64,000 nucleotides of DNA, from positions 224,001 through 288,000 of the forward strand of contig CAXXGJ010000002.1 in assembly GCA_963677895.2 (NCBI GenBank), in the 5' to 3' direction. The translations under genes and the position numbers were made by a program. The first letter of the stretch is position 1. Each line of letters starts with the position of its first letter. The DNA comes from Treponemataceae bacterium (GTDB lineage: Bacteria > Spirochaetota > Spirochaetia > Treponematales > Rectinemataceae). The notes under the pieces were generated by a model. It had not been told where the DNA came from, did no database searches, and worked only from the letters and a program-made list of their open reading frames with translations. Below are positions 41,826 through 52,633 of this stretch, in pieces.

Positions 41826-43367
41826 ATGGCCAAAATGAAAGCACCCACTCCCGATGAACCGATAGAAAAACAGCTTTGGAAAGCGGCCGACAAGCTCCGC
41901 AAGAACATAGACGCCGCCGAGTACAAACATGTCGTCCTCGGCCTCATTTTCCTCAAATACATATCTGCGGCGTTCGAACGACTCCGCGCCACCCTCGTCG
42001 CGGGCCAAGGCGATTACGCGGGCGCCGATCCCGAGGACAGGGACGAGTACAAGGCCGAAAATGTCTTCTTCGTGCCCGAAGCCGCCCGCTGGTCCACACT
42101 CCAGGCCAACGCCAGGATTCCCACTGTCGGCAAGCTCGTGGATGACGCCATGGAAGCCCTGGAGAAGGATAATCCCTCCCTCAAGGACGTCCTGCCCAAA
42201 GTCTATGCCCGAGGTAATCTCGACGCCGCCAACCTGGGCGGCCTTATCGATCTCATCTCCAATATCGACTTCGGCGCCGCCAAAGAGCGGAGCGCCGACC
42301 TCTTGGGTCACGTTTTTGAATACTTCCTGGGTGAATTCGCCCTCGCGGAGGGCAAGAAGGGCGGCCAGTTCTACACGCCCCGCAGCGTCGTCGAACTCCT
42401 GGTCGAAATGCTCGAACCATACAAAGGCCGTGTTTTCGACCCCTGCTGCGGTTCGGGCGGCATGTTCGTGCAGTCTGAAAAATTTGTTCAGGCCCGACAG
42501 GGGCGGGTGGACGATATCTCCGTCTACGGCCAGGAATCGAACCTCACCACCTGGCGCCTTTGCAAGATGAACCTCGCCATACGCGGAATCGACAGCTCAC
42601 AAGTGAAGTGGAACAACGAAGGTTCCTTCCTCAACGACCTCCACAAGGATCTCAAAGCCGATTTCGTCATAGCCAATCCGCCCTTCAACGATTCCGACTG
42701 GTCTGGCGAATTGCTGCGAAAAGACGGCCGCTGGAAATTCGGCGCCCCGCCTTCGGGAAACGCCAACTACGCCTGGATCCAGCACTTTCTCCACCACCTC
42801 AAACCGGCAGGCACCGCCGGCTTCGTCCTCGCCAAGGGCTCCCTCACTTCCAAAAGTTCAGGCGAAGGCGAAATCCGCAAAGCGATTGTAGAAGCCCGCC
42901 TCGTCGACTGTATCGTCAACCTTCCGGCCAAGCTCTTTCTCAATACACAGATACCGGCCTGCCTCTGGTTCCTCTCGCGCGACAAGGCGGGCGCAGGCCA
43001 TCGCAACCGCGCCGAAGAAGTCCTCTTCATCGACGCCAGAAACGAAGGCCACCTCATCAACCGCCGCAGCAAGGAATTCGCGGCCGAAGACATCGAAAAA
43101 GTCGCCGGCGCCTACCGCGCATGGCGCGCCGGCGAAGGCTACGAGGACGTCAAAGGCTTCTGCGCCTCAGTCCCATTGAGCCGCGTGCGCGAACTCGACT
43201 ACGTCCTCACCCCCGGCCGCTACGTCGGTCTTCCCGACGAAGAGGACGACTTTGATTTCAAAGAACGCTTTACGCGTCTGAAAGCCGAGTTTGAAGACCA
43301 GCTTGCCGAGGAAGAGCGACTCAACAGAGCGATTTTGGAAAATCTGAACAAGGTAAAACTGCCATGA
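41826..43367 (+). CDS. hsdM: Type I R-M methyltransferase subunit
   Basis: [28 protein letters not shown]. Confidence 0.96.
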
Positions 43368-44242
43368 GTGAAATTATAGCAATGCAGGAGATACAAAAGT
43401 GCATTTTTACGCTTCGTCAGACTCAGGTGATGATTGACGAGGATATCGCGGCTCTCTATGGCGTCGAAACGCGCGCCTTGAATCAGGCGGTGAAGAGAAA
43501 CAGCCAGCGTTTCCCGCCAGAATTCATGTTCCGGCTTTCGGAATCGGAGATGGAAATCTTGAGATCACAAAGTGTGACCTCAAAGTGGGGTGGTAGAAGA
43601 TATTTGCCTTTCGCCTTTACCGAACAGGGCGTGGCCATGCTGTCAGCCGTTCTTCACAGCGAAACGGCGGTAAAGGTCAGTATTCAGATCATGAGCGCCT
43701 TCGTGGCCATGCGCCGATTCCTGTTGACGAATGCGCAGGTATTCCAACGTCTGGATACTCTAGAGCTGAAGCAAATCCAAACCGATCGTAAAATCGACCA
43801 GGTTCTGGCAGCCATCGAGGATACAAGTATTCAACCAAAGCAGGGTATTTTCTATGATGGACAAGTCTTCGAAGCCTGGCGGTTTGTTTCCGATCTTGTG
43901 AGGTCGGCAAAAAAAACGATAATTCTCATCGACAATTATGTGGATGATTCGGTCTTGTCGCTCTTTTCAAAAAGGAAAAAATCGATCGCCATCACTCTCC
44001 TGACGAAAAGTATTTCCAAACAGCTTGAAATAGACGTAAAGAAATTCAATGAGCAGTATCCACCTATAACGGTTACTCAATTCAATACATCGCATGACCG
44101 CTTCCTGATTATCGATGAGATGGAATTGTATCATTTTGGGGCTTCCCTTAAAGACCTCGGAAAGAAATGGTTCGCGTTCTCGAAACTGGAAATGAAGGCG
44201 ATGGAAGTACTCGAAAACCTCAAAAAGGCGAATCTCATATGA
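43364..44242 (+). CDS. ORF6N (KilA-N-like) DNA-binding protein with C-terminal PLD-like domain
   Basis: [51 protein letters not shown]. Confidence 0.85.
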
Positions 44243-46062
44243 GAGAGTGGTCGGAAACAACACTATCGAGCTGTATACTAACCAATACAACCAGTATCGA
44301 TCAAAAATACTCCTATAAAATCATTAAATACCTCGACACTGGTTCAATTACTTGTAATAGAGTTGACTCTCTACAAGAAATAAAAATTGAAGAAGCACCA
44401 AGTCGAGCAAAAAGGTTAGTTAAGAAAGACGATATAATTTACTCATTGGTAAGGCCTAACCAGCTTCATTATGGATATATTGTTGATCCTTTACCAAATC
44501 TTGTGGTGTCAACGGGTTTTGTAGTAATTGAAAACAATAAGGAAAAAATTAACTCTCGATTTTTATACTATTTTCTTACACAAAATGAAACAACTGAGTA
44601 TCTTCATTCAATCGCTGAAGCCTCAACATCCGCTTATCCCTCGCTAAAACCAAATGACATTGAAGCGCTTGAGATTAATCTTCCCCCTCTTCCCGAACAG
44701 CGCGCTATCGCCGCAGTTCTCTCCGGCCTCGACGACAAGATCGAACTTCTGCGCCGCCAGAACCAAACTTTAGAGGCGATGGCTGAGATACTTTTCAGCC
44801 AGTACTTCGTGGAAGAGGCCGATGAAAAAGCTGTCGGGAAAATTGCAGATTTTGTGGACTTTAATCCTTCGCGTCAACTTGCAAAAGGAACAGCTGCTCC
44901 TTATCTCGAAATGACCAATGTGAGCTCGCAGTTTTTCTGCCCTGCGGAGTGGTATAGCAGAGAATATTCTTCCGGAATGAAGTTTATAAATGGCGATACT
45001 TTACTTGCGCGAATAACGCCCTGCCTTGAAAATGGAAAATCTGCCTTTGTCACCTTCCTTGAAAAAGATCAGGTAGGGTGGGGTTCTACAGAGTTTATCG
45101 TTATGCGTTCTAAAGGAAATCTTCATCCGCTGTTTTCCTATGCATTGGTGCGAAATAGAGATTTTCGCGATTATGCCGAAAGCTGCCTTGCAGGTTCGAG
45201 CGGTCGCCAGCGCATCGAAATTGAACACCTTATGAACTATGAGATAATCATTCCGACAGAGCGAGCAATACTAGAATTCAATCAGCAGATGAGCACGATA
45301 GCGCCAAAGCTTCATAGCAATTTTCTACAAATACGAACATTGGAAAAAATGCGCGATACACTTCTTCCCAAGCTCATGAGCGGCGAAGTACAAGTCAAGG
45401 ATCAAGCGTCACCTCCATCGGCAACAATCAAGACCACAATTTTTGAAAAAGAAAATGCACATAAGACAACAGACGAGTTTATTGAAGCGGTTGCGATTGC
45501 TTATTTAGTACGACTGCTCTCAAGCGAAAAGTTTCCTTTAGGCCGAAAACGTTATAATAAAATGGCTTATTTGGCACATCGAAAATCTGAAAATGATGTT
45601 CGAGACCAGTATCTAAAAAAGGCCGCAGGTCCATACAGCCCTTGGGCTAAATATAAAGGGCCAGAGCGAATAGCCATTCAGAATGGGTATGTGAAAGTTA
45701 TTAATTCCGGAAAGCTTGAAGGGTTTGTAATTGGAATAGATAACTATAAAATTGATAAGTATTTAGAGCACTATTCGATACGTTCTAGTCTGGAATGGGT
45801 TGTTAAAGAATTTCGGTACGCAAAAAACGACTATCTCGAATTGCTAGCTACTGTAGATTTTGCAGCCCTAGATTTACTAGCAGAGAAACAAAAAATTGGT
45901 GTCAACAATATCAAGTCTATTATTTTAAATAATAAAGACTGGGCTCCAAAGCTTACTCGTACAACTTTTTCTGATTTCAACATACAACAAGCGCTCGAAA
46001 AACTTGGAAGCATATTCCCGGCGATGTACAGGAGGTTGCCTCATGACACAAATCCATCCTAA
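44239..46062 (+). CDS. hsdS: Type I R-M specificity subunit with an extra C-terminal domain of about 200 aa
   Basis: Two TRDs; PPLPEQRAIA..LDDKIE central conserved region; RDTLLPKLMSGEV normal end; ORF continues past it. Confidence 0.9.
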   Translation: MREWSETTLSSCILTNTTSIDQKYSYKIIKYLDTGSITCNRVDSLQEIKIEEAPSRAKRLVKKDDIIYSLVRPNQLHYGYIVDPLPNLVVSTGFVVIENNKEKINSRFLYYFLTQNETTEYLHSIAEASTSAYPSLKPNDIEALEINLPPLPEQRAIAAVLSGLDDKIELLRRQNQTLEAMAEILFSQYFVEEADEKAVGKIADFVDFNPSRQLAKGTAAPYLEMTNVSSQFFCPAEWYSREYSSGMKFINGDTLLARITPCLENGKSAFVTFLEKDQVGWGSTEFIVMRSKGNLHPLFSYALVRNRDFRDYAESCLAGSSGRQRIEIEHLMNYEIIIPTERAILEFNQQMSTIAPKLHSNFLQIRTLEKMRDTLLPKLMSGEVQVKDQASPPSATIKTTIFEKENAHKTTDEFIEAVAIAYLVRLLSSEKFPLGRKRYNKMAYLAHRKSENDVRDQYLKKAAGPYSPWAKYKGPERIAIQNGYVKVINSGKLEGFVIGIDNYKIDKYLEHYSIRSSLEWVVKEFRYAKNDYLELLATVDFAALDLLAEKQKIGVNNIKSIILNNKDWAPKLTRTTFSDFNIQQALEKLGSIFPAMYRRLPHDTNPS

Positions 46063-46564
46063 CCTTTTTATCGGCACCGAACACGACTTCGAGCAAAGAG
46101 TCAAGAATCAGCCTGGCTGGTATGTCGTCCACGCATGCAAGGAACCTTACCACCGAAAGCTTTTAGGTTATACGACGCAGGGCGCTCCGAAGAGCCATCC
46201 CGAATACCTTTGGGCGAAGCGCGAAAATAGACTTTACCTCAATTTGGTAGATGTTGCCGATCCCGCGTACATTTCCGACGACATCGTTCGCGCAACGATG
46301 AAATTCATAGATGAAGCCCTCGCTACGGGAAACAAGTGCCTCGTACACTGCAATCTGGGCGAGAGCCGATCGCCAGTCCTCGGTCTTCTCTACATGGCGC
46401 ACCGAGGCCTTATCCCGAACGAGTCTCTCCCAATCGCGGAGTCTGCATTCATGAAGCTATATCCCGGTTATAACCCCAAGGCCGGTATGCGGGGCTTCCT
46501 CTCACAACATTGGGAGGAATACACTGCTCATATGTCATTTCAGGCCAAACAGGAGCTTGCGTGA
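46043..46564 (+). CDS. Dual-specificity (Cys-based) phosphatase family protein
   Basis: LVHCNLGESRS = HCxxGxxR(S); ITQI/PNLFIG-type N-terminus; C-terminal NP..GMRGFL; RBS AGGAGG. Confidence 0.85.
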   Translation: MTQIHPNLFIGTEHDFEQRVKNQPGWYVVHACKEPYHRKLLGYTTQGAPKSHPEYLWAKRENRLYLNLVDVADPAYISDDIVRATMKFIDEALATGNKCLVHCNLGESRSPVLGLLYMAHRGLIPNESLPIAESAFMKLYPGYNPKAGMRGFLSQHWEEYTAHMSFQAKQELA

Positions 46565-48408
46565 GTATGCTTACTCTCACTGACGTGGAATCGCTCGTCG
46601 AGTCCACCGATGTAGAGTGCAAGGCCGCTCGGGGGAAGTCCGGCGAAGGCGCAGTACCCGACAGTTTTTGGGAAACCTATTCGGCGATGGCCAATACGAA
46701 AGGTGGCATCGTCTACCTTGGAATTGAGGAGAAACCCGCAAGCATTTTCCATGTTGTGGGAATCCAGAACGTCGAAAAAATGCTCAAGGCTCTTTGGGAT
46801 ACTTTAAATGCAGGCAACAAGGTCAGCAAAAATATACTCGAACATGATGCCATTACTGTTCAGGAGATCGAGGGGAAAAGAATTATTCAAATAGCGGTTT
46901 CCCGTGCCCGCCGCAAGGATCGACCAATATATATTGGTCAGAATCCTCTTAAAGGTACCTTTGTCCGTCGTCATGAGGGTGACTATCATCTCGATGAAGA
47001 AGAAGTGCGCCGCATGACTGCCGAAGCGGTCGAGGATTCTCGGGACGAAACAGTACTACCAGACTTTAAGGTAGCTGATCTCGATATGGAAACAATTCTG
47101 AGCTATCGTAATAGATTCGCCGCGCTAAAACCAGCAAGCCCTTGGCTTGATTTGCCAGTTGAGGATTTTTTGCTGCGTATTGGTGCCGTACAAAAGAATC
47201 GCTCGACAGGTACAAATGAGGTACGTCGCGCTGGCTTGCTGATGTTCGGAAGATTCGATGCTATTCACGATGTGTATCCCTACTATTTTGTTGATTATCA
47301 GGAAAGATTATCTGCTAAATCCGATGAGCGATGGTCCGATCGCTTGGTTCCTGATGGTGATTGGTCTGGGAATCTATACGACTTCTTTCAGCGGATATAT
47401 CGAAAATTGACCGCCGACGTGAAAATTCCCTTCCGCTTGAGCGGCGCGACCAGGATCGATGATACGCCGATACATGAAGCGCTTCGAGAGACACTCGCAA
47501 ACACGCTCATTCATGCCGATTATACTGGTCGTGTTTCTGTGCTTGTGGAAAAATATCCAGACCGATTCATATTCCGGAACCCGGGACTCATGCGTGTCCC
47601 ACTAGAGCAAGCTCTTGCTGGCGGAATTAGTGATTGTCGGAACCGAAATCTTCAAAACATGTTCCGTTATGTCGGATATGGCGATCATGCGGGATCGGGT
47701 ATCCCAAAGATATTGCACAATTGGCATGAACAGCACTGGCAGGTTCCGTTTCTAACAGAAAACAATGAGCTTGGCTTTACTAAAATTGAACTGCGGATGA
47801 TTAGCCTCTTTCCTGAAGAAACGCATGAACACCTTTTATCGCAGTTTGGATCAAAGTATTCAGAAATGCCCGAACGGGACCGGATTATTCTTGTGACGAC
47901 CGCTCTTGAAGGCATGGTTACTCATAAACGGGTTATGCAACTCAGCAGCGAACATCCTAAAGATATCACCGCAAGGCTTTGCCGGCTTGTGCAAGATGGG
48001 TTCCTGTTGAAAACCGGCGAAACCCGCGCGCGGGTGTATTTCTTGCCAAGCTCCCCAGATAAGGCCTCGAGCTCCCCAGATAAGGCCTCGAGCTCCCCAG
48101 ATAAGGCCTCGAGCTCCCCAGATAGCACAGGTATATCAACGCTGGTTCAAGCTAAAATGGATGCTATTCTGTCTTCCCATGGTTGGCTCCGATTCCCTGG
48201 AAGACTTGCGCCATCAATGATGCGTGGTCTAATTCTCGATCTTTGTACAGGCGAGCCACTTGAGCTGCGGGTGTTGGCTAAGGCCTTGGCAAGGGATCCC
48301 AAAGGCCTGTATGAGGCCTATTTGAATCCAATGATCTCCGAAGGCCTTCTGGAGCTTAAGTATCCCGCGGCACGCAATCATCCTAACCAGGCCTATCGAA
48401 CTAAATAA
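46561..48408 (+). CDS. AlbA_2 (Schlafen-like) + HATPase_c_4 + HTH protein
   Basis: ESTDVECK, SAMANTKGG..LGI, ALRETLANTLIHADY, FRNPG, RN, GSGI; C-terminal HPNQAY. Confidence 0.85.
   Translation: MSMLTLTDVESLVESTDVECKAARGKSGEGAVPDSFWETYSAMANTKGGIVYLGIEEKPASIFHVVGIQNVEKMLKALWDTLNAGNKVSKNILEHDAITVQEIEGKRIIQIAVSRARRKDRPIYIGQNPLKGTFVRRHEGDYHLDEEEVRRMTAEAVEDSRDETVLPDFKVADLDMETILSYRNRFAALKPASPWLDLPVEDFLLRIGAVQKNRSTGTNEVRRAGLLMFGRFDAIHDVYPYYFVDYQERLSAKSDERWSDRLVPDGDWSGNLYDFFQRIYRKLTADVKIPFRLSGATRIDDTPIHEALRETLANTLIHADYTGRVSVLVEKYPDRFIFRNPGLMRVPLEQALAGGISDCRNRNLQNMFRYVGYGDHAGSGIPKILHNWHEQHWQVPFLTENNELGFTKIELRMISLFPEETHEHLLSQFGSKYSEMPERDRIILVTTALEGMVTHKRVMQLSSEHPKDITARLCRLVQDGFLLKTGETRARVYFLPSSPDKASSSPDKASSSPDKASSSPDSTGISTLVQAKMDAILSSHGWLRFPGRLAPSMMRGLILDLCTGEPLELRVLAKALARDPKGLYEAYLNPMISEGLLELKYPAARNHPNQAYRTK
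48049..48124 (+). repeat. Perfect 21-bp tandem repeat, about 3.6 copies (SSPDKAS)
   Basis: AGCTCCCCAGATAAGGCCTCG x3 plus AGCTCCCCAGATA. Confidence 0.95.
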
Positions 48409-48447
48409 GGAAGTAAAAGGTTTCATCGGAAAATAATAGGAAAAAAG

Positions 48448-51400
48448 ATGAAAAACAGGCTCGCGGAGTCGGATATCGAGGAATTTGCCCTTGAACTTCT
48501 GGGAAAGCGTGGCTATTGCTGGCTTTATGGCCCTGAAATAGCTCCCGATGGGGCGGCTCCCGCCAGGGCTTCGTTCGGCGAGGTGGTCCTGACCGATCGG
48601 CTCAGGGCGGCCTTGATGCGCATCAATCCATCGATCCCGCCCGATGCCCGGGAGGCGGCTCTCAAACAGCTTGTCAACCTCCACGCTCCCGATCTCGTGG
48701 CGGGCAACGAAACCTTTCATCGCCAGCTCACGGAAAACGTGAAAGTCAATTACCGGAAGGATGGCGATGTCAAGGGAGACTATGTCCAGGCCATCGATTT
48801 CGACCATCCCGAAAGGAACGAATTCCTTGCCGTCAACCAATTCACGGTGATCGAGGGCCGCGCCAACAAGCGACCCGATATTGTCCTTTTCGTGAACGGT
48901 ATTCCCCTTGTTGTCATCGAGTTGAAGAACCCCGCCGACGAAAACGCCACTGTCCATAGCGCTTTCAAACAGTGCAAAACCTACCTGCAAGAAATTCCCT
49001 CGCTCTTCACCTCGAATGGCTTTCTCGTCATCTCGGACGGACTCGATGCCCGCGCGGGAACGATCTCCTCCGATTTCGGACGCTTCATGGTCTGGAAGAC
49101 TTCCGATGGAGCGACCGAGGCGCCCGGGAACGCCAGCCAGCTCGAAACGCTTATCGCGGGGATGCTCGCGCCCGCGACCCTCCTGGATCTCGTTCGTCAC
49201 TTTATCGTCTTCGAGAAAGATAAAAAGGAAGACGCGAAGTCGAAGCAGGTCTTCATTGTGACTACCAAGAAAATGGCCGCCTATCACCAGTATCACGCGG
49301 TCAACCGCGCCGTGGCTTCGACCCTTCGTGCTTCGGGCTATGCCGCGAGGCGGACAAGCGTGGCAGCGGGACTTATAGTCCCTGAATCGCCAGAAGCCTA
49401 CGGACTTCCCGGCGTGAAAAGCCAACCGGCCGGCGATCGCAAGGGCGGCGTGGTCTGGCACACCCAGGGTTCGGGGAAATCCCTTTCGATGGTATTCTTC
49501 GCGGGCAAGATAATCCTCGCCATGGAAAATCCCACCCTCGTGGCGATAACCGACCGCAACGATCTTGACGACCAGCTCTTCGACACCTTCGCCGCCTGCC
49601 GCCAGCTTTTACGCCAGGAGCCCGTCCAGGCGGAAAGTCGGGAACACCTGAAGCGCCTCCTCCAGGTGGTTTCAGGCGGGATTGTCTTTACCACTATGCA
49701 GAAGTTCCAGCCCGAAGAGGGCAATGTCCTCCAAACCCTCTCCGACCGGGACAATATTGTCGTCATCGCCGATGAGGCCCACCGCAGCCAGTACGGATTC
49801 AAGGCCAAGACCATCGACGAAAAGGACGACGGGAAGCGCGTGATCGGCAAACGGACTGTCTACGGTTTCGCCAAATACCTGCGCGACGCCCTCCCCCTGG
49901 CAACCTACCTTGGATTCACCGGAACCCCAATCGAGAAAGCGGATGTCAACACGCCGGCTGTTTTCGGCAACTATGTGGACGTCTACGATATCGCCCAAGC
50001 CGTGGACGACCACGCGACCGTCCGGATCTACTATGAGAGCCGCCTCGCCAAAATCGCCTTGAGCGACGAGGGCAGAAAGCTTGTCGAGGATTTGGACGAA
50101 GACCTTGAAGAAGACGACCTGAGCGATTCGCGGCAGGCCAAGGCGAAGTGGACGCAACTCGAGGCGCTCATCGGAAGCCGGGACCGCATCCAGCGTATCG
50201 CCGCCGATATTGTCTGGCACTTTGAAAGGCGCATAGCGGCTATCGATGGCAAGGGTATGATCGTCGCCATGTCGCGGCGCATCGCGGCCGAACTCTACGC
50301 CGAAATCATCGCGCTGCGGCCCGGGTGGCACGATCCCGACCTGCGCAAGGGCGTCGTCAAAATCGTCATGACATCGGCCTCTTCCGATGGACCTGAAATT
50401 TCCGCGCATCATACGACCAAGAAGGAAAGGCGCGTGCTTTCCGACCGGATGAAGGATCCTGATGACCCGTTGAAACTCGTCATAGTCCGCGACATGTGGC
50501 TTACTGGCTTCGATGTCCCCTGTCTGCATACGATGTACATCGACAAGCCCATGAAGGGCCATACGCTCATGCAAGCCATCGCGAGGGTCAACCGTGTCTA
50601 CAAGGACAAGAAAGGCGGGCTTGTTGTCGACTACCTCGGCATAGCCTCCGACCTCAAGGAAGCCCTCTCCTTCTACTCGGATTCGGGCGGGAAGGGCGAC
50701 CCCGCCGCCACCCAGGAAGAGGCAGTCCGTCTCATGGAGGAAAAACTCGAAGTCGTCGCGGCGATGTTCCACGGCTTCCCCTATCGGGACTATTTCCGCG
50801 CCGGCACGGGCCGCAAGCTCTCGATTATCCTCGAGGCGGAGGAACACGTCCTGGGCCTGCCCGACGGCAAAAAGCGTTTTGTCGACGAAGTGACGGCCCT
50901 CTCGCAAGCTTATTCCATCGCCGTCCCCCACGAACGGGCCATGGAGGCGGGCGATGAAATCGCTTTCTTCCAGGCCGTGAAGGCCCGTCTTGTGAAGTTC
51001 GACCGCTCCGGAACCGGGCGGAGCGATGAGGAAATCGAAACGGCGATCCGCCAGGTCATCGATGAAGCCCTCGTGAGCGAAAAGGTCGTGGACATTTTCG
51101 ATGCCGCCGGCATCAAGAAACCCGATATCTCCATTCTCTCGGAGGATTTCCTCATGGAAGTCCGCCACATGAAGCACAAGAACATCGCCCTGGAAGTGTT
51201 GCGCAAGATAATGGGCGACGAGATATCGGCTCGTATGAGGACCAACCTGGTACAAGGAAGGAGCCTCATGGAGATGCTCGAAGCCTCCATCCGACGCTAT
51301 CACAATAAAATTGTCACCGCGGCCGAGGTGATCGAGGAGATTATCGGCTTAGGCAAGGAAATCCGGGCGATGGACGCTGAAGGCTCGGCGCTGGGCCTCA

Positions 51401-51702
51401 GCACCTACGAATACGCCTTCTATACTGCAGTCGCGGACAACGAAAGCGCCCGCGAACTCATGGGTAAGGAGAAACTCCGGGAACTCGCCGTCGTCCTTTA
51501 CCGGAAGATCAAAGACAACACCTCGATCGACTGGACGATCAAGGAAAACGTCAAGGCGAAACTCAAGGTCATCATCAAGCGGACGCTCAGACAATATGGC
51601 TATCCGCCTGACATGCAGAAGCTCGCCACCGAAACCGTGCTCAGGCAGGCCGAGATGATCGCCGATGAACTGACGAAGCCCAATTTATATTCGCATGTAT
51701 AG
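48448..51702 (+). CDS. hsdR: Type I R-M restriction subunit
   Basis: PD..IELK nuclease, WHTQGSGKS, DEAHRSQ, FTGTP, LTGFD, QAIARVNR. Confidence 0.96.
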   Translation: MKNRLAESDIEEFALELLGKRGYCWLYGPEIAPDGAAPARASFGEVVLTDRLRAALMRINPSIPPDAREAALKQLVNLHAPDLVAGNETFHRQLTENVKVNYRKDGDVKGDYVQAIDFDHPERNEFLAVNQFTVIEGRANKRPDIVLFVNGIPLVVIELKNPADENATVHSAFKQCKTYLQEIPSLFTSNGFLVISDGLDARAGTISSDFGRFMVWKTSDGATEAPGNASQLETLIAGMLAPATLLDLVRHFIVFEKDKKEDAKSKQVFIVTTKKMAAYHQYHAVNRAVASTLRASGYAARRTSVAAGLIVPESPEAYGLPGVKSQPAGDRKGGVVWHTQGSGKSLSMVFFAGKIILAMENPTLVAITDRNDLDDQLFDTFAACRQLLRQEPVQAESREHLKRLLQVVSGGIVFTTMQKFQPEEGNVLQTLSDRDNIVVIADEAHRSQYGFKAKTIDEKDDGKRVIGKRTVYGFAKYLRDALPLATYLGFTGTPIEKADVNTPAVFGNYVDVYDIAQAVDDHATVRIYYESRLAKIALSDEGRKLVEDLDEDLEEDDLSDSRQAKAKWTQLEALIGSRDRIQRIAADIVWHFERRIAAIDGKGMIVAMSRRIAAELYAEIIALRPGWHDPDLRKGVVKIVMTSASSDGPEISAHHTTKKERRVLSDRMKDPDDPLKLVIVRDMWLTGFDVPCLHTMYIDKPMKGHTLMQAIARVNRVYKDKKGGLVVDYLGIASDLKEALSFYSDSGGKGDPAATQEEAVRLMEEKLEVVAAMFHGFPYRDYFRAGTGRKLSIILEAEEHVLGLPDGKKRFVDEVTALSQAYSIAVPHERAMEAGDEIAFFQAVKARLVKFDRSGTGRSDEEIETAIRQVIDEALVSEKVVDIFDAAGIKKPDISILSEDFLMEVRHMKHKNIALEVLRKIMGDEISARMRTNLVQGRSLMEMLEASIRRYHNKIVTAAEVIEEIIGLGKEIRAMDAEGSALGLSTYEYAFYTAVADNESARELMGKEKLRELAVVLYRKIKDNTSIDWTIKENVKAKLKVIIKRTLRQYGYPPDMQKLATETVLRQAEMIADELTKPNLYSHV

Positions 51703-51751: not shown

Positions 51752-52633
51752 CTATCGATACGCCCTTTCCAGCTCTGCGATATCGAATTTCTTCATCGCG
51801 AGGAAGGCTTCCTGAACCCTTTTGGACTTGGCCGGGTCCTTGTCGCTCATCATCTTGTCCAGAACCCTGGGCACGATCTGCCAGGAAAGCCCGAACTTGT
51901 CCTTCAGCCAGCCGCATTGCTCGGCTTCGGGATGGGCCGAAAGCTTTTCCCAGAAATAATCGATCTCTTCCTGGTTCTCGCAGAAAACCATCAGCGAGAT
52001 GGCTTCGTTGAACGAAAAGCCGTGATCGTAGGCGCTATCCATCGCCGAGAAGCGCTGCCCCTCAAGGGTGAAAGCCCCGAATTTCAACGTGCCTTCCCTG
52101 TCCGGCTTGTCATCGGGGCCATAGTGAAGAATTCCATCCACCGAGGCGCCGCTGAATACCGAGGCATAGTAGTGAATCGCCTCCTCCGCCTTTCCGCACT
52201 GTTCCCCGACGAACATGAGAACGGGCGCGATTTTTTGTGAAACGCTTTTTCCGCCATTGTACATGATCTGCCAGGATAAGCCGAATTTATCCATCAGCCA
52301 CCCATACTTTTCGCTGAAGGGATACTCGCCCAGCGACATGAGTTCGCCGCCGCCCGGGCGCAGGGCATTCCATAGCCGATCCACCTCCGCTTTCGTCTCG
52401 CAGCTGACCATGAAGGATACCGCGGGGGTGAACTTGAAAAGCGGGCCGGCCGACAGGAGCATAAATTCTTGTCCCGAAAGGACTATCTTCGCCGTCTCCA
52501 CCGTTTCCGAGGGCGTGCCCTCCATCTTTGAACTGCTTTCGATGCTCGAATCGTCAAAAAGCGAGGTATATAATTTCGCCGCCTCGAGGGCTTCGGTGTC
52601 GAACCACAAATGGGGGACTATTTTTCTCATCAT
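51752..52633 (-). CDS. VOC/PhnB-family tandem-domain protein
   Basis: IVPHLWF, FTPAVSF, YGWLMDKFGLSWQI and CGWLKDKFGLSWQI. Confidence 0.88.
   Translation of the reverse strand: MMRKIVPHLWFDTEALEAAKLYTSLFDDSSIESSSKMEGTPSETVETAKIVLSGQEFMLLSAGPLFKFTPAVSFMVSCETKAEVDRLWNALRPGGGELMSLGEYPFSEKYGWLMDKFGLSWQIMYNGGKSVSQKIAPVLMFVGEQCGKAEEAIHYYASVFSGASVDGILHYGPDDKPDREGTLKFGAFTLEGQRFSAMDSAYDHGFSFNEAISLMVFCENQEEIDYFWEKLSAHPEAEQCGWLKDKFGLSWQIVPRVLDKMMSDKDPAKSKRVQEAFLAMKKFDIAELERAYR

Follow-up and report, generated by a model that had tools for sequence, protein, structure and literature searches.

Does the type I restriction–modification (R-M) operon at positions 41826 to 51702 of the window, the 64,000-nt stretch of DNA analysed here, encode one guarded defence system, or have its accessory genes been gathered independently? 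The first-pass annotation proposed a four-module cassette in which an antitoxin-like domain on HsdS couples the state of the R-M complex to a phosphatase and/or a Schlafen-like nuclease. The present analysis indicates that the locus is a type I R-M operon with three unrelated passenger genes and not a four-part system, whereas the domain on HsdS is a homologue of the C-terminal domain of DarG2.

Operon layout and mosaic composition

All six open reading frames lie on the forward strand in the order first described, and the tight junctions were confirmed, with ATGA at 43364 and 44239, a 20-nt overlap at 46043, and GTGA at 46561. The first gene, hsdM (41826..43367), encodes a type I N6-adenine methyltransferase of 513 amino acids (N6_Mtase, E 2e-105; HsdM_N; PADLOC MTase_I, E 5e-198). 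It is followed by a gene for an ORF6N-domain protein (43364..44242; ORF6N, E 2e-33), hsdS (44239..46062; 607 aa, Pfam Methylase_S), a gene for a protein with the dual-specificity-phosphatase fold and an intact HCxxGxxRS loop (46043..46564; DSPc, E 4e-8), and a gene for a protein combining Schlafen AlbA_2, GHKL ATPase, and HTH domains (46561..48408; the last a weak PF21247 match). After a spacing of 39 nt, hsdR (48448..51702) encodes a type I restriction endonuclease/translocase of 1084 amino acids, with the Pfam domains HSDR_N, helicase, and T1RH_C (TIGR00348 above cut-off; PADLOC REase_I). The operon was thus rightly annotated as type I R-M, and function as such is predicted from the intact domains of hsdM, hsdS, and hsdR. 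The scan for promoters and terminators returned matches at chance level only, and no tRNA gene was found in the window.

The R-M operon, together with one downstream gene, is an insertion. In genome G005, the sequences that flank it in the window (41693 and 52725) are approximately 160 bp apart, and the corresponding site, empty in G005, is occupied by other genes in G001 of the same genus. The downstream gene (51752-52633, reverse strand; 293 aa), which belongs to the same inserted block and is missing with it from G005, is presumably VOC/PhnB-like. Furthermore, GC3 differs between modules (hsdM 0.73, ORF6N 0.55, HsdS appended domain 0.33, phosphatase 0.60, Schlafen-ATPase 0.47, and hsdR 0.74), as expected for separate acquisitions. 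Within the Schlafen-ATPase gene, an in-frame 21-nt unit present in approximately 3.6 copies (48049-48124) encodes a Ser/Pro-rich linker.

Independent occurrence of the accessory genes

Scanning of metagenomes for the appended domain of HsdS (hereafter the extension) yielded 130 confirmed relatives, the best 80 of which, with six genome regions, gave 86 loci. The phosphatase profile, which matched all six control loci, matched none of the 86 other extension loci, and at least 600 nt of downstream sequence was present at 68 of the 83 extension loci measured. Conversely, the extension was found in none of the six other type I operons containing the phosphatase (L110, L150, L152, L157, L158, and L159). 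The co-occurrence of phosphatase and extension expected from the cassette proposal was thus not borne out across genomes. One sister locus probably keeps the two together, which fits common descent: its HsdS (P0002) has a different TRD1, a near-identical TRD2, an extension 73% identical, and the same overlap-encoded terminal peptide, and P0256 is a phosphatase 88% identical to the present one. ORF6N was also found in none of the 86 loci, whereas eight of them contained a RhuM-family gene, a kind that may fall under the same PADLOC type as the ORF6N gene.

Both hsdM and hsdR were visible in 38 of 83 extension loci, and 19 of these 38 complete operons were cargo-free, with no other same-strand ORF of at least 70 aa between the two genes; four loci in which no ORF could be indexed were left out of the cargo count. 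Directly after the extension (83 loci) stood hsdR in 29, a Schlafen-ATPase-type gene in 10, and RhuM in six; the gene was not visible in seven, and the rest were assorted, including GmrSD, Kiwa, SIR2-HerA, AbiEii, HipA, and PD-Lambda-5. The 10 Schlafen-ATPases are the commonest single cargo, a rank that lacks an adequate baseline, and are 22-28% identical to the present one; those with a visible hsdM belong to a long-HsdM subfamily, unlike this locus. This recurrence of a distant Schlafen-ATPase directly behind the extension counts in favour of the first-pass annotation.

Considered singly, each passenger likewise occurred elsewhere. The ORF6N gene is a full-length match to the PADLOC candidate PDC-S05 (E 6e-124). 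Homologues with 65-74% identity lie between hsdM and a plain hsdS at L218 and L219, and neither extension, phosphatase, nor Schlafen-ATPase was found near ORF6N homologues in seven regions (of eight places). Pfam gave no match to the C-terminus of the protein, which is putatively PLD-like from an HxR motif. The Schlafen-ATPase carries SLFN_AlbA_2 (PF04326) and HATPase_c_4 (PF13749), both above cut-off, the domain pair that defines a 'Schlatpase'. No close relative was found in 180 other genomes, and there were 13 plasmid matches; of the three viewed, two were stand-alone and one, with 45% identity, lies in a type I operon between a plain hsdS of 405 aa and hsdR.

The phosphatase has the CX5R loop, Asp, and DUSP fold of dual-specificity enzymes. 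C103, R109, and D70, presumably the general acid, are invariant in 18 members, and the invariant Met1 in the 18 aligned members backs the start at 46043. The family gave 696 matches and occurs in 48 of 401 genomes, 35 of these with a distant subfamily within one family; 25 loci were inspected (12 genome regions, 12 viral, and one further genome), among them the six type I operons named above. In three of the six type I operons, the phosphatase abuts an AAA_13 ATPase (PADLOC PDC-S06; L110:6001-8863, L157:5886-9014, and L159:3557-6599) that we assume to be RloC-like, and a phosphatase-ATPase pair is possible. Intact or decayed, the phosphatase gene also adjoins CRISPR-cas genes (cas3-like by eye) at L151, L160, and L161 and lies near terminase genes in phages (L113-L119), suggesting a general conflict-related family. 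Because no PADLOC model matched it, the family is apparently a separate, unlisted defence-island candidate; no description of it in R-M or defence islands was found in the literature covered, mostly the main texts of non-subscription papers.

The accessory genes thus occur independently of one another, the genomic half of the outcome that the first-pass annotation itself had named as refuting its proposal, and are best seen as cargo stacked at a known hotspot, the gap between hsdS and hsdR having been termed a potential hotspot in a report on the EPEC RRDM island (PMC12255303). The four-gene 'system' should not be treated as a co-evolved unit, and each of the three passengers may be a free-standing defence gene.

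A DarG2 C-terminal homologue on HsdS

HsdS is among the best-studied specificity proteins and is pictured as two TRDs with conserved helices. In the present protein, this core covers approximately residues 1-390 (44239..45410; PADLOC Specificity_I, E 5e-87), and a K/P/A/S-rich linker, variable among homologues, leads from the terminal helix (45411..45471) to the extension (45472..46062). Residues ~412-595 make up a folded domain of ~185 aa past the normal end of HsdS (AlphaFold pLDDT 93.9). Foldseek matched this model to 7YK3_B (E 7e-5, TM 0.57), all other matches having E >=0.2; 7YK3 is a DarTG complex reportedly published by Deep et al. in 2023. Comparison with the DarG chain gave Z 14.1 and rmsd 4.1 over 167 aligned residues, and the next value was 6.3, the nearest folds after DarG being LmuC and PadR/MarR winged helices (Z 5-6). 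Furthermore, hhalign linked the extension to the DarG C-terminal domain (94%, E 1e-7), the PADLOC DarG model matched it (positions 168-326, E 1e-6), and in a small database, the ORFs of 14 darT loci, its profile found seven DarG proteins at E<0.001. A PADLOC type I methyltransferase model also contains a related domain. Although identity to DarG is about 15-17%, the appended domain is a homologue of the C-terminal, DarT-binding, winged-helix domain of DarG2, and the antitoxin-like domain suspected on HsdS is real.

Seven columns are invariant across 145 extension sequences, and the motifs KLxY, GPY, and LELLATV, shared with DarG, are among the best conserved. No Pfam family matched in 14 members scanned, the PDB sequence search gave no match, and no viral fold matched at E<=0.001. 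The extension is basic (median pI 9.1). Mimicry of single-stranded DNA is cited in PMC11481870; the reading 'basic, hence no DNA mimic' was dropped because seven of eight true DarG C-terminal domains are basic as well.

The search recovered 277 relatives among 1342 candidates, with Methylase_S on 112 of 120 among the matches listed, and 467 representatives at 50% clustering. Proteins with this fusion of HsdS to a DarG C-terminal-type domain number in the hundreds and span many phyla; named sources are Bacteroidota, Chloroflexi, Nitrospiraceae, Acidobacteria, Planctomycetes, and Proteobacteria. The domain is nearly always C-terminal, separated by a variable linker from the final HsdS helix, and its HsdS hosts come from at least three type I subfamilies. 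Its distribution is sporadic (7/301 and 1/301 genomes in two phyla), and none was found in the plasmids and viral contigs searched. Two weak matches from a single-protein scan of genome contigs were both spurious. In the genome studied here, at least two other type I-like methyltransferase loci (G000:C18 38-46 kb; C6 ~383 kb) are without the extension.

The domain was also seen in other settings. A stand-alone second copy (L108:7719-8381) lies behind an HsdS that carries a distant form of the extension at L108:5881-8381. In P0138, the domain follows a C-terminus that, from a motif, we take to resemble type IIG R-M enzymes, and it may thus ride on other R-M classes. A family of ~287-aa proteins (~49 members seen; L026:493-2063 and L027:6190-10561) ends in the same DarG C-terminal-like domain; its gene follows one that looks sigma-factor-like by eye and, at L027, within an element carrying an integrase, is transcribed divergently from the ThiF/JAB and multi-ubiquitin/E2 genes. 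A tree of 51 rows, 32 of them chosen from the HsdS-type set, placed the extension family outside DarG, as a separate group on long branches (support 98/92), with the ~287-aa family nested among HsdS forms; the tree is unrooted, leaving the direction of origin unset.

The partners of this domain in DarTG were not found alongside it. The DarT model PF14487, which matched 14 of 251 genomes, matched none of the seven extension genomes to which the whole-genome search extended, namely the present one (92.8% complete) and six others. A purpose-built DarT profile and a macrodomain profile each matched none of the 86 extension loci, many of which, from metagenomes, are short, with toxins elsewhere in those genomes out of view, and no macrodomain scored above threshold in the present genome. 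A complete DarTG2 within a type I operon was seen in the same phylum (G072, L184:3114-8621), in the order hsdM-darT-darG-hsdS.

Possible roles of the extension and comparison with known systems

Considering these results, we propose the following scenario, of which the joint content, independent cargo plus an extension acting on the R-M complex itself, appears moderately probable. A type I operon encoding HsdR2M2S would have gained its three passengers one by one, at the hsdM/hsdS and hsdS/hsdR junctions. Its HsdS bears the DarG2 C-terminal homologue on a flexible linker. Median dN/dS in the extension was 0.17 over 105 related, non-independent pairs, cargo-free operons included, with a value of 1.5 for one near-identical pair on very few changes. 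Since the extension is thus kept by purifying selection where darT, the macrodomain, and often cargo are lacking, its job is most likely with the R-M complex. The winged-helix module would most likely add either a DNA contact, for loading, affinity, or operator binding, or a protein contact on the M or R subunits. The EPEC RRDM island has the order hsdS-darT-darG-hsdR-M48 (PMC12255303), from which one in-frame deletion would yield such a fusion. Probably, darTG was inserted beside hsdS, and darT and the macrodomain were then lost, the reverse direction also being possible.

It is also conceivable, though we consider it doubtful, that the extension is an orphan antitoxin or decoy. It would then have kept its affinity for a DarT-like ADP-ribosyltransferase, whether encoded by a phage, on a plasmid, or at an unlinked locus, or would recognize an anti-defence protein of a phage, and would thereby shield or arm the R-M complex. 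The DarG C-terminal domain alone reportedly sequesters and neutralizes DarT by binding (PMC7003065); the fold is not known to have another proven function, which speaks against the DNA contact proposed above. The clear homology, the conserved motifs shared with DarG, the flexible tether, the stand-alone copy, and the presence of the domain on unrelated proteins all agree with retained binding. Against it stand the lack of darT in seven of seven genomes and 86 of 86 loci, the separate long-branched group, and the low identity to DarG. A complex predicted for a spirochaete DarT and the extension scored 0.00, which weighs neither way. A widespread HsdS class would, on this rather unlikely account, have co-opted the toxin-binding half of DarG as a working antitoxin or decoy, so that R-M complexes capture ADP-ribosyltransferases or phage anti-defence proteins; if true, a mobile domain common to both would connect this class with the tendency of DarTG2 to insert in hsd operons.

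The guarded system first proposed, in which the extension holds back the phosphatase, the Schlafen-ATPase, or both as long as the complex is not disturbed by an anti-restriction protein, now seems improbable. It has in its favour the tight translational coupling of the genes, the Schlafen-ATPases directly behind the extension at 10 of 83 loci, the precedents of PrrC and Ronin (bioRxiv 2023.04.06.535777), and Schlatpase modules reported as fused to HsdS (bioRxiv 2026.05.29.728809). However, phosphatase and extension did not co-occur in the counts above, half of the complete operons have no cargo to guard, the 10 Schlafen-ATPases are distant and, where hsdM is visible, accompany another HsdM subfamily, and the closest type I case viewed pairs a Schlafen-ATPase with a plain HsdS. 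RonA, by contrast, is described as always linked to hsdMS (bioRxiv 2023.04.06.535777), whereas here the effector has no conserved linkage to its HsdMS. The extension is thus unlikely to guard a fixed cargo, though a promiscuous domain could guard a changing one.

SocA has an adaptor role, and restriction alleviation is ClpXP-based. A SocA/Panacea-like extension passing HsdR to a protease is nevertheless very unlikely: the nearest named ESM Atlas cluster, with PF13274 in 13% of its members (score 0.82), offers a lead only, whereas PF13274 matched none of 14 extension members and the extension profile reached E 0.39 against one Panacea protein. Finally, a functionless relic of a darG fusion, although close HsdM relatives operate with a plain HsdS (G029, 80% HsdM identity), is scarcely credible and is largely refuted by the purifying selection and invariant columns described above.

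The HsdS variant described here, with its DarG C-terminal-type domain, is real and apparently undescribed. No description of an HsdS–DarG fusion or HsdS extension was found in the literature covered, mostly the main texts of non-subscription papers; such loci may appear in the supplements of surveys of Schlatpases or PADLOC types. This conserved, toxin-free homologue without a Pfam family is found on hundreds of HsdS proteins and offers a concrete handle on why DarTG2 so often lies within type I operons, a question noted as open in PMC5179494. Further background is given in PMC12707154, PMC11543638, and bioRxiv 2025.05.14.653371 and 2025.10.09.681413.

Among known systems, the PDC-S05 match differs from the tested member in having ORF6N instead of Virulence_RhuM; one PDC-S05 member reportedly gave E. 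coli protection from T7, T5, and T4 (bioRxiv 2024.09.26.614923). The candidate Schlatpase has the same order of SLFN AlbA_2 and GHKL ATPase, with a C-terminal HTH, as the 60,692 proteins reported, some of which are linked to type I R-M (bioRxiv 2026.05.29.728809), and is without Argonaute. As in EcoprrI-PrrC and Ronin, candidate effector genes lie inside the hsd operon, but extension operons have no fixed effector linkage, and sequestration here is conjectural. The hsdM-x-hsdS-y-hsdR order is that of the type I hsd hotspot, at which relatives carry RhuM, GmrSD, Kiwa, SIR2-HerA, AbiEii, and PD-Lambda-5; compared with ordinary operons there, the present HsdS is ~200 aa longer and three cargo genes are stacked. 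The closest parallel to the extension is DarTG2 in type I operons (EPEC RRDM island; DarTG of T. aquaticus and M. tuberculosis; 7YK3), to whose DarG2 C-terminal domain it is homologous. The EPEC island occupies the same hsdS/hsdR neighbourhood, and many extension operons likewise end in hsdR-M48, an M48 gene being present at 25 extension loci. Unlike DarG2, the extension has neither darT nor a macrodomain and is fused to HsdS instead.
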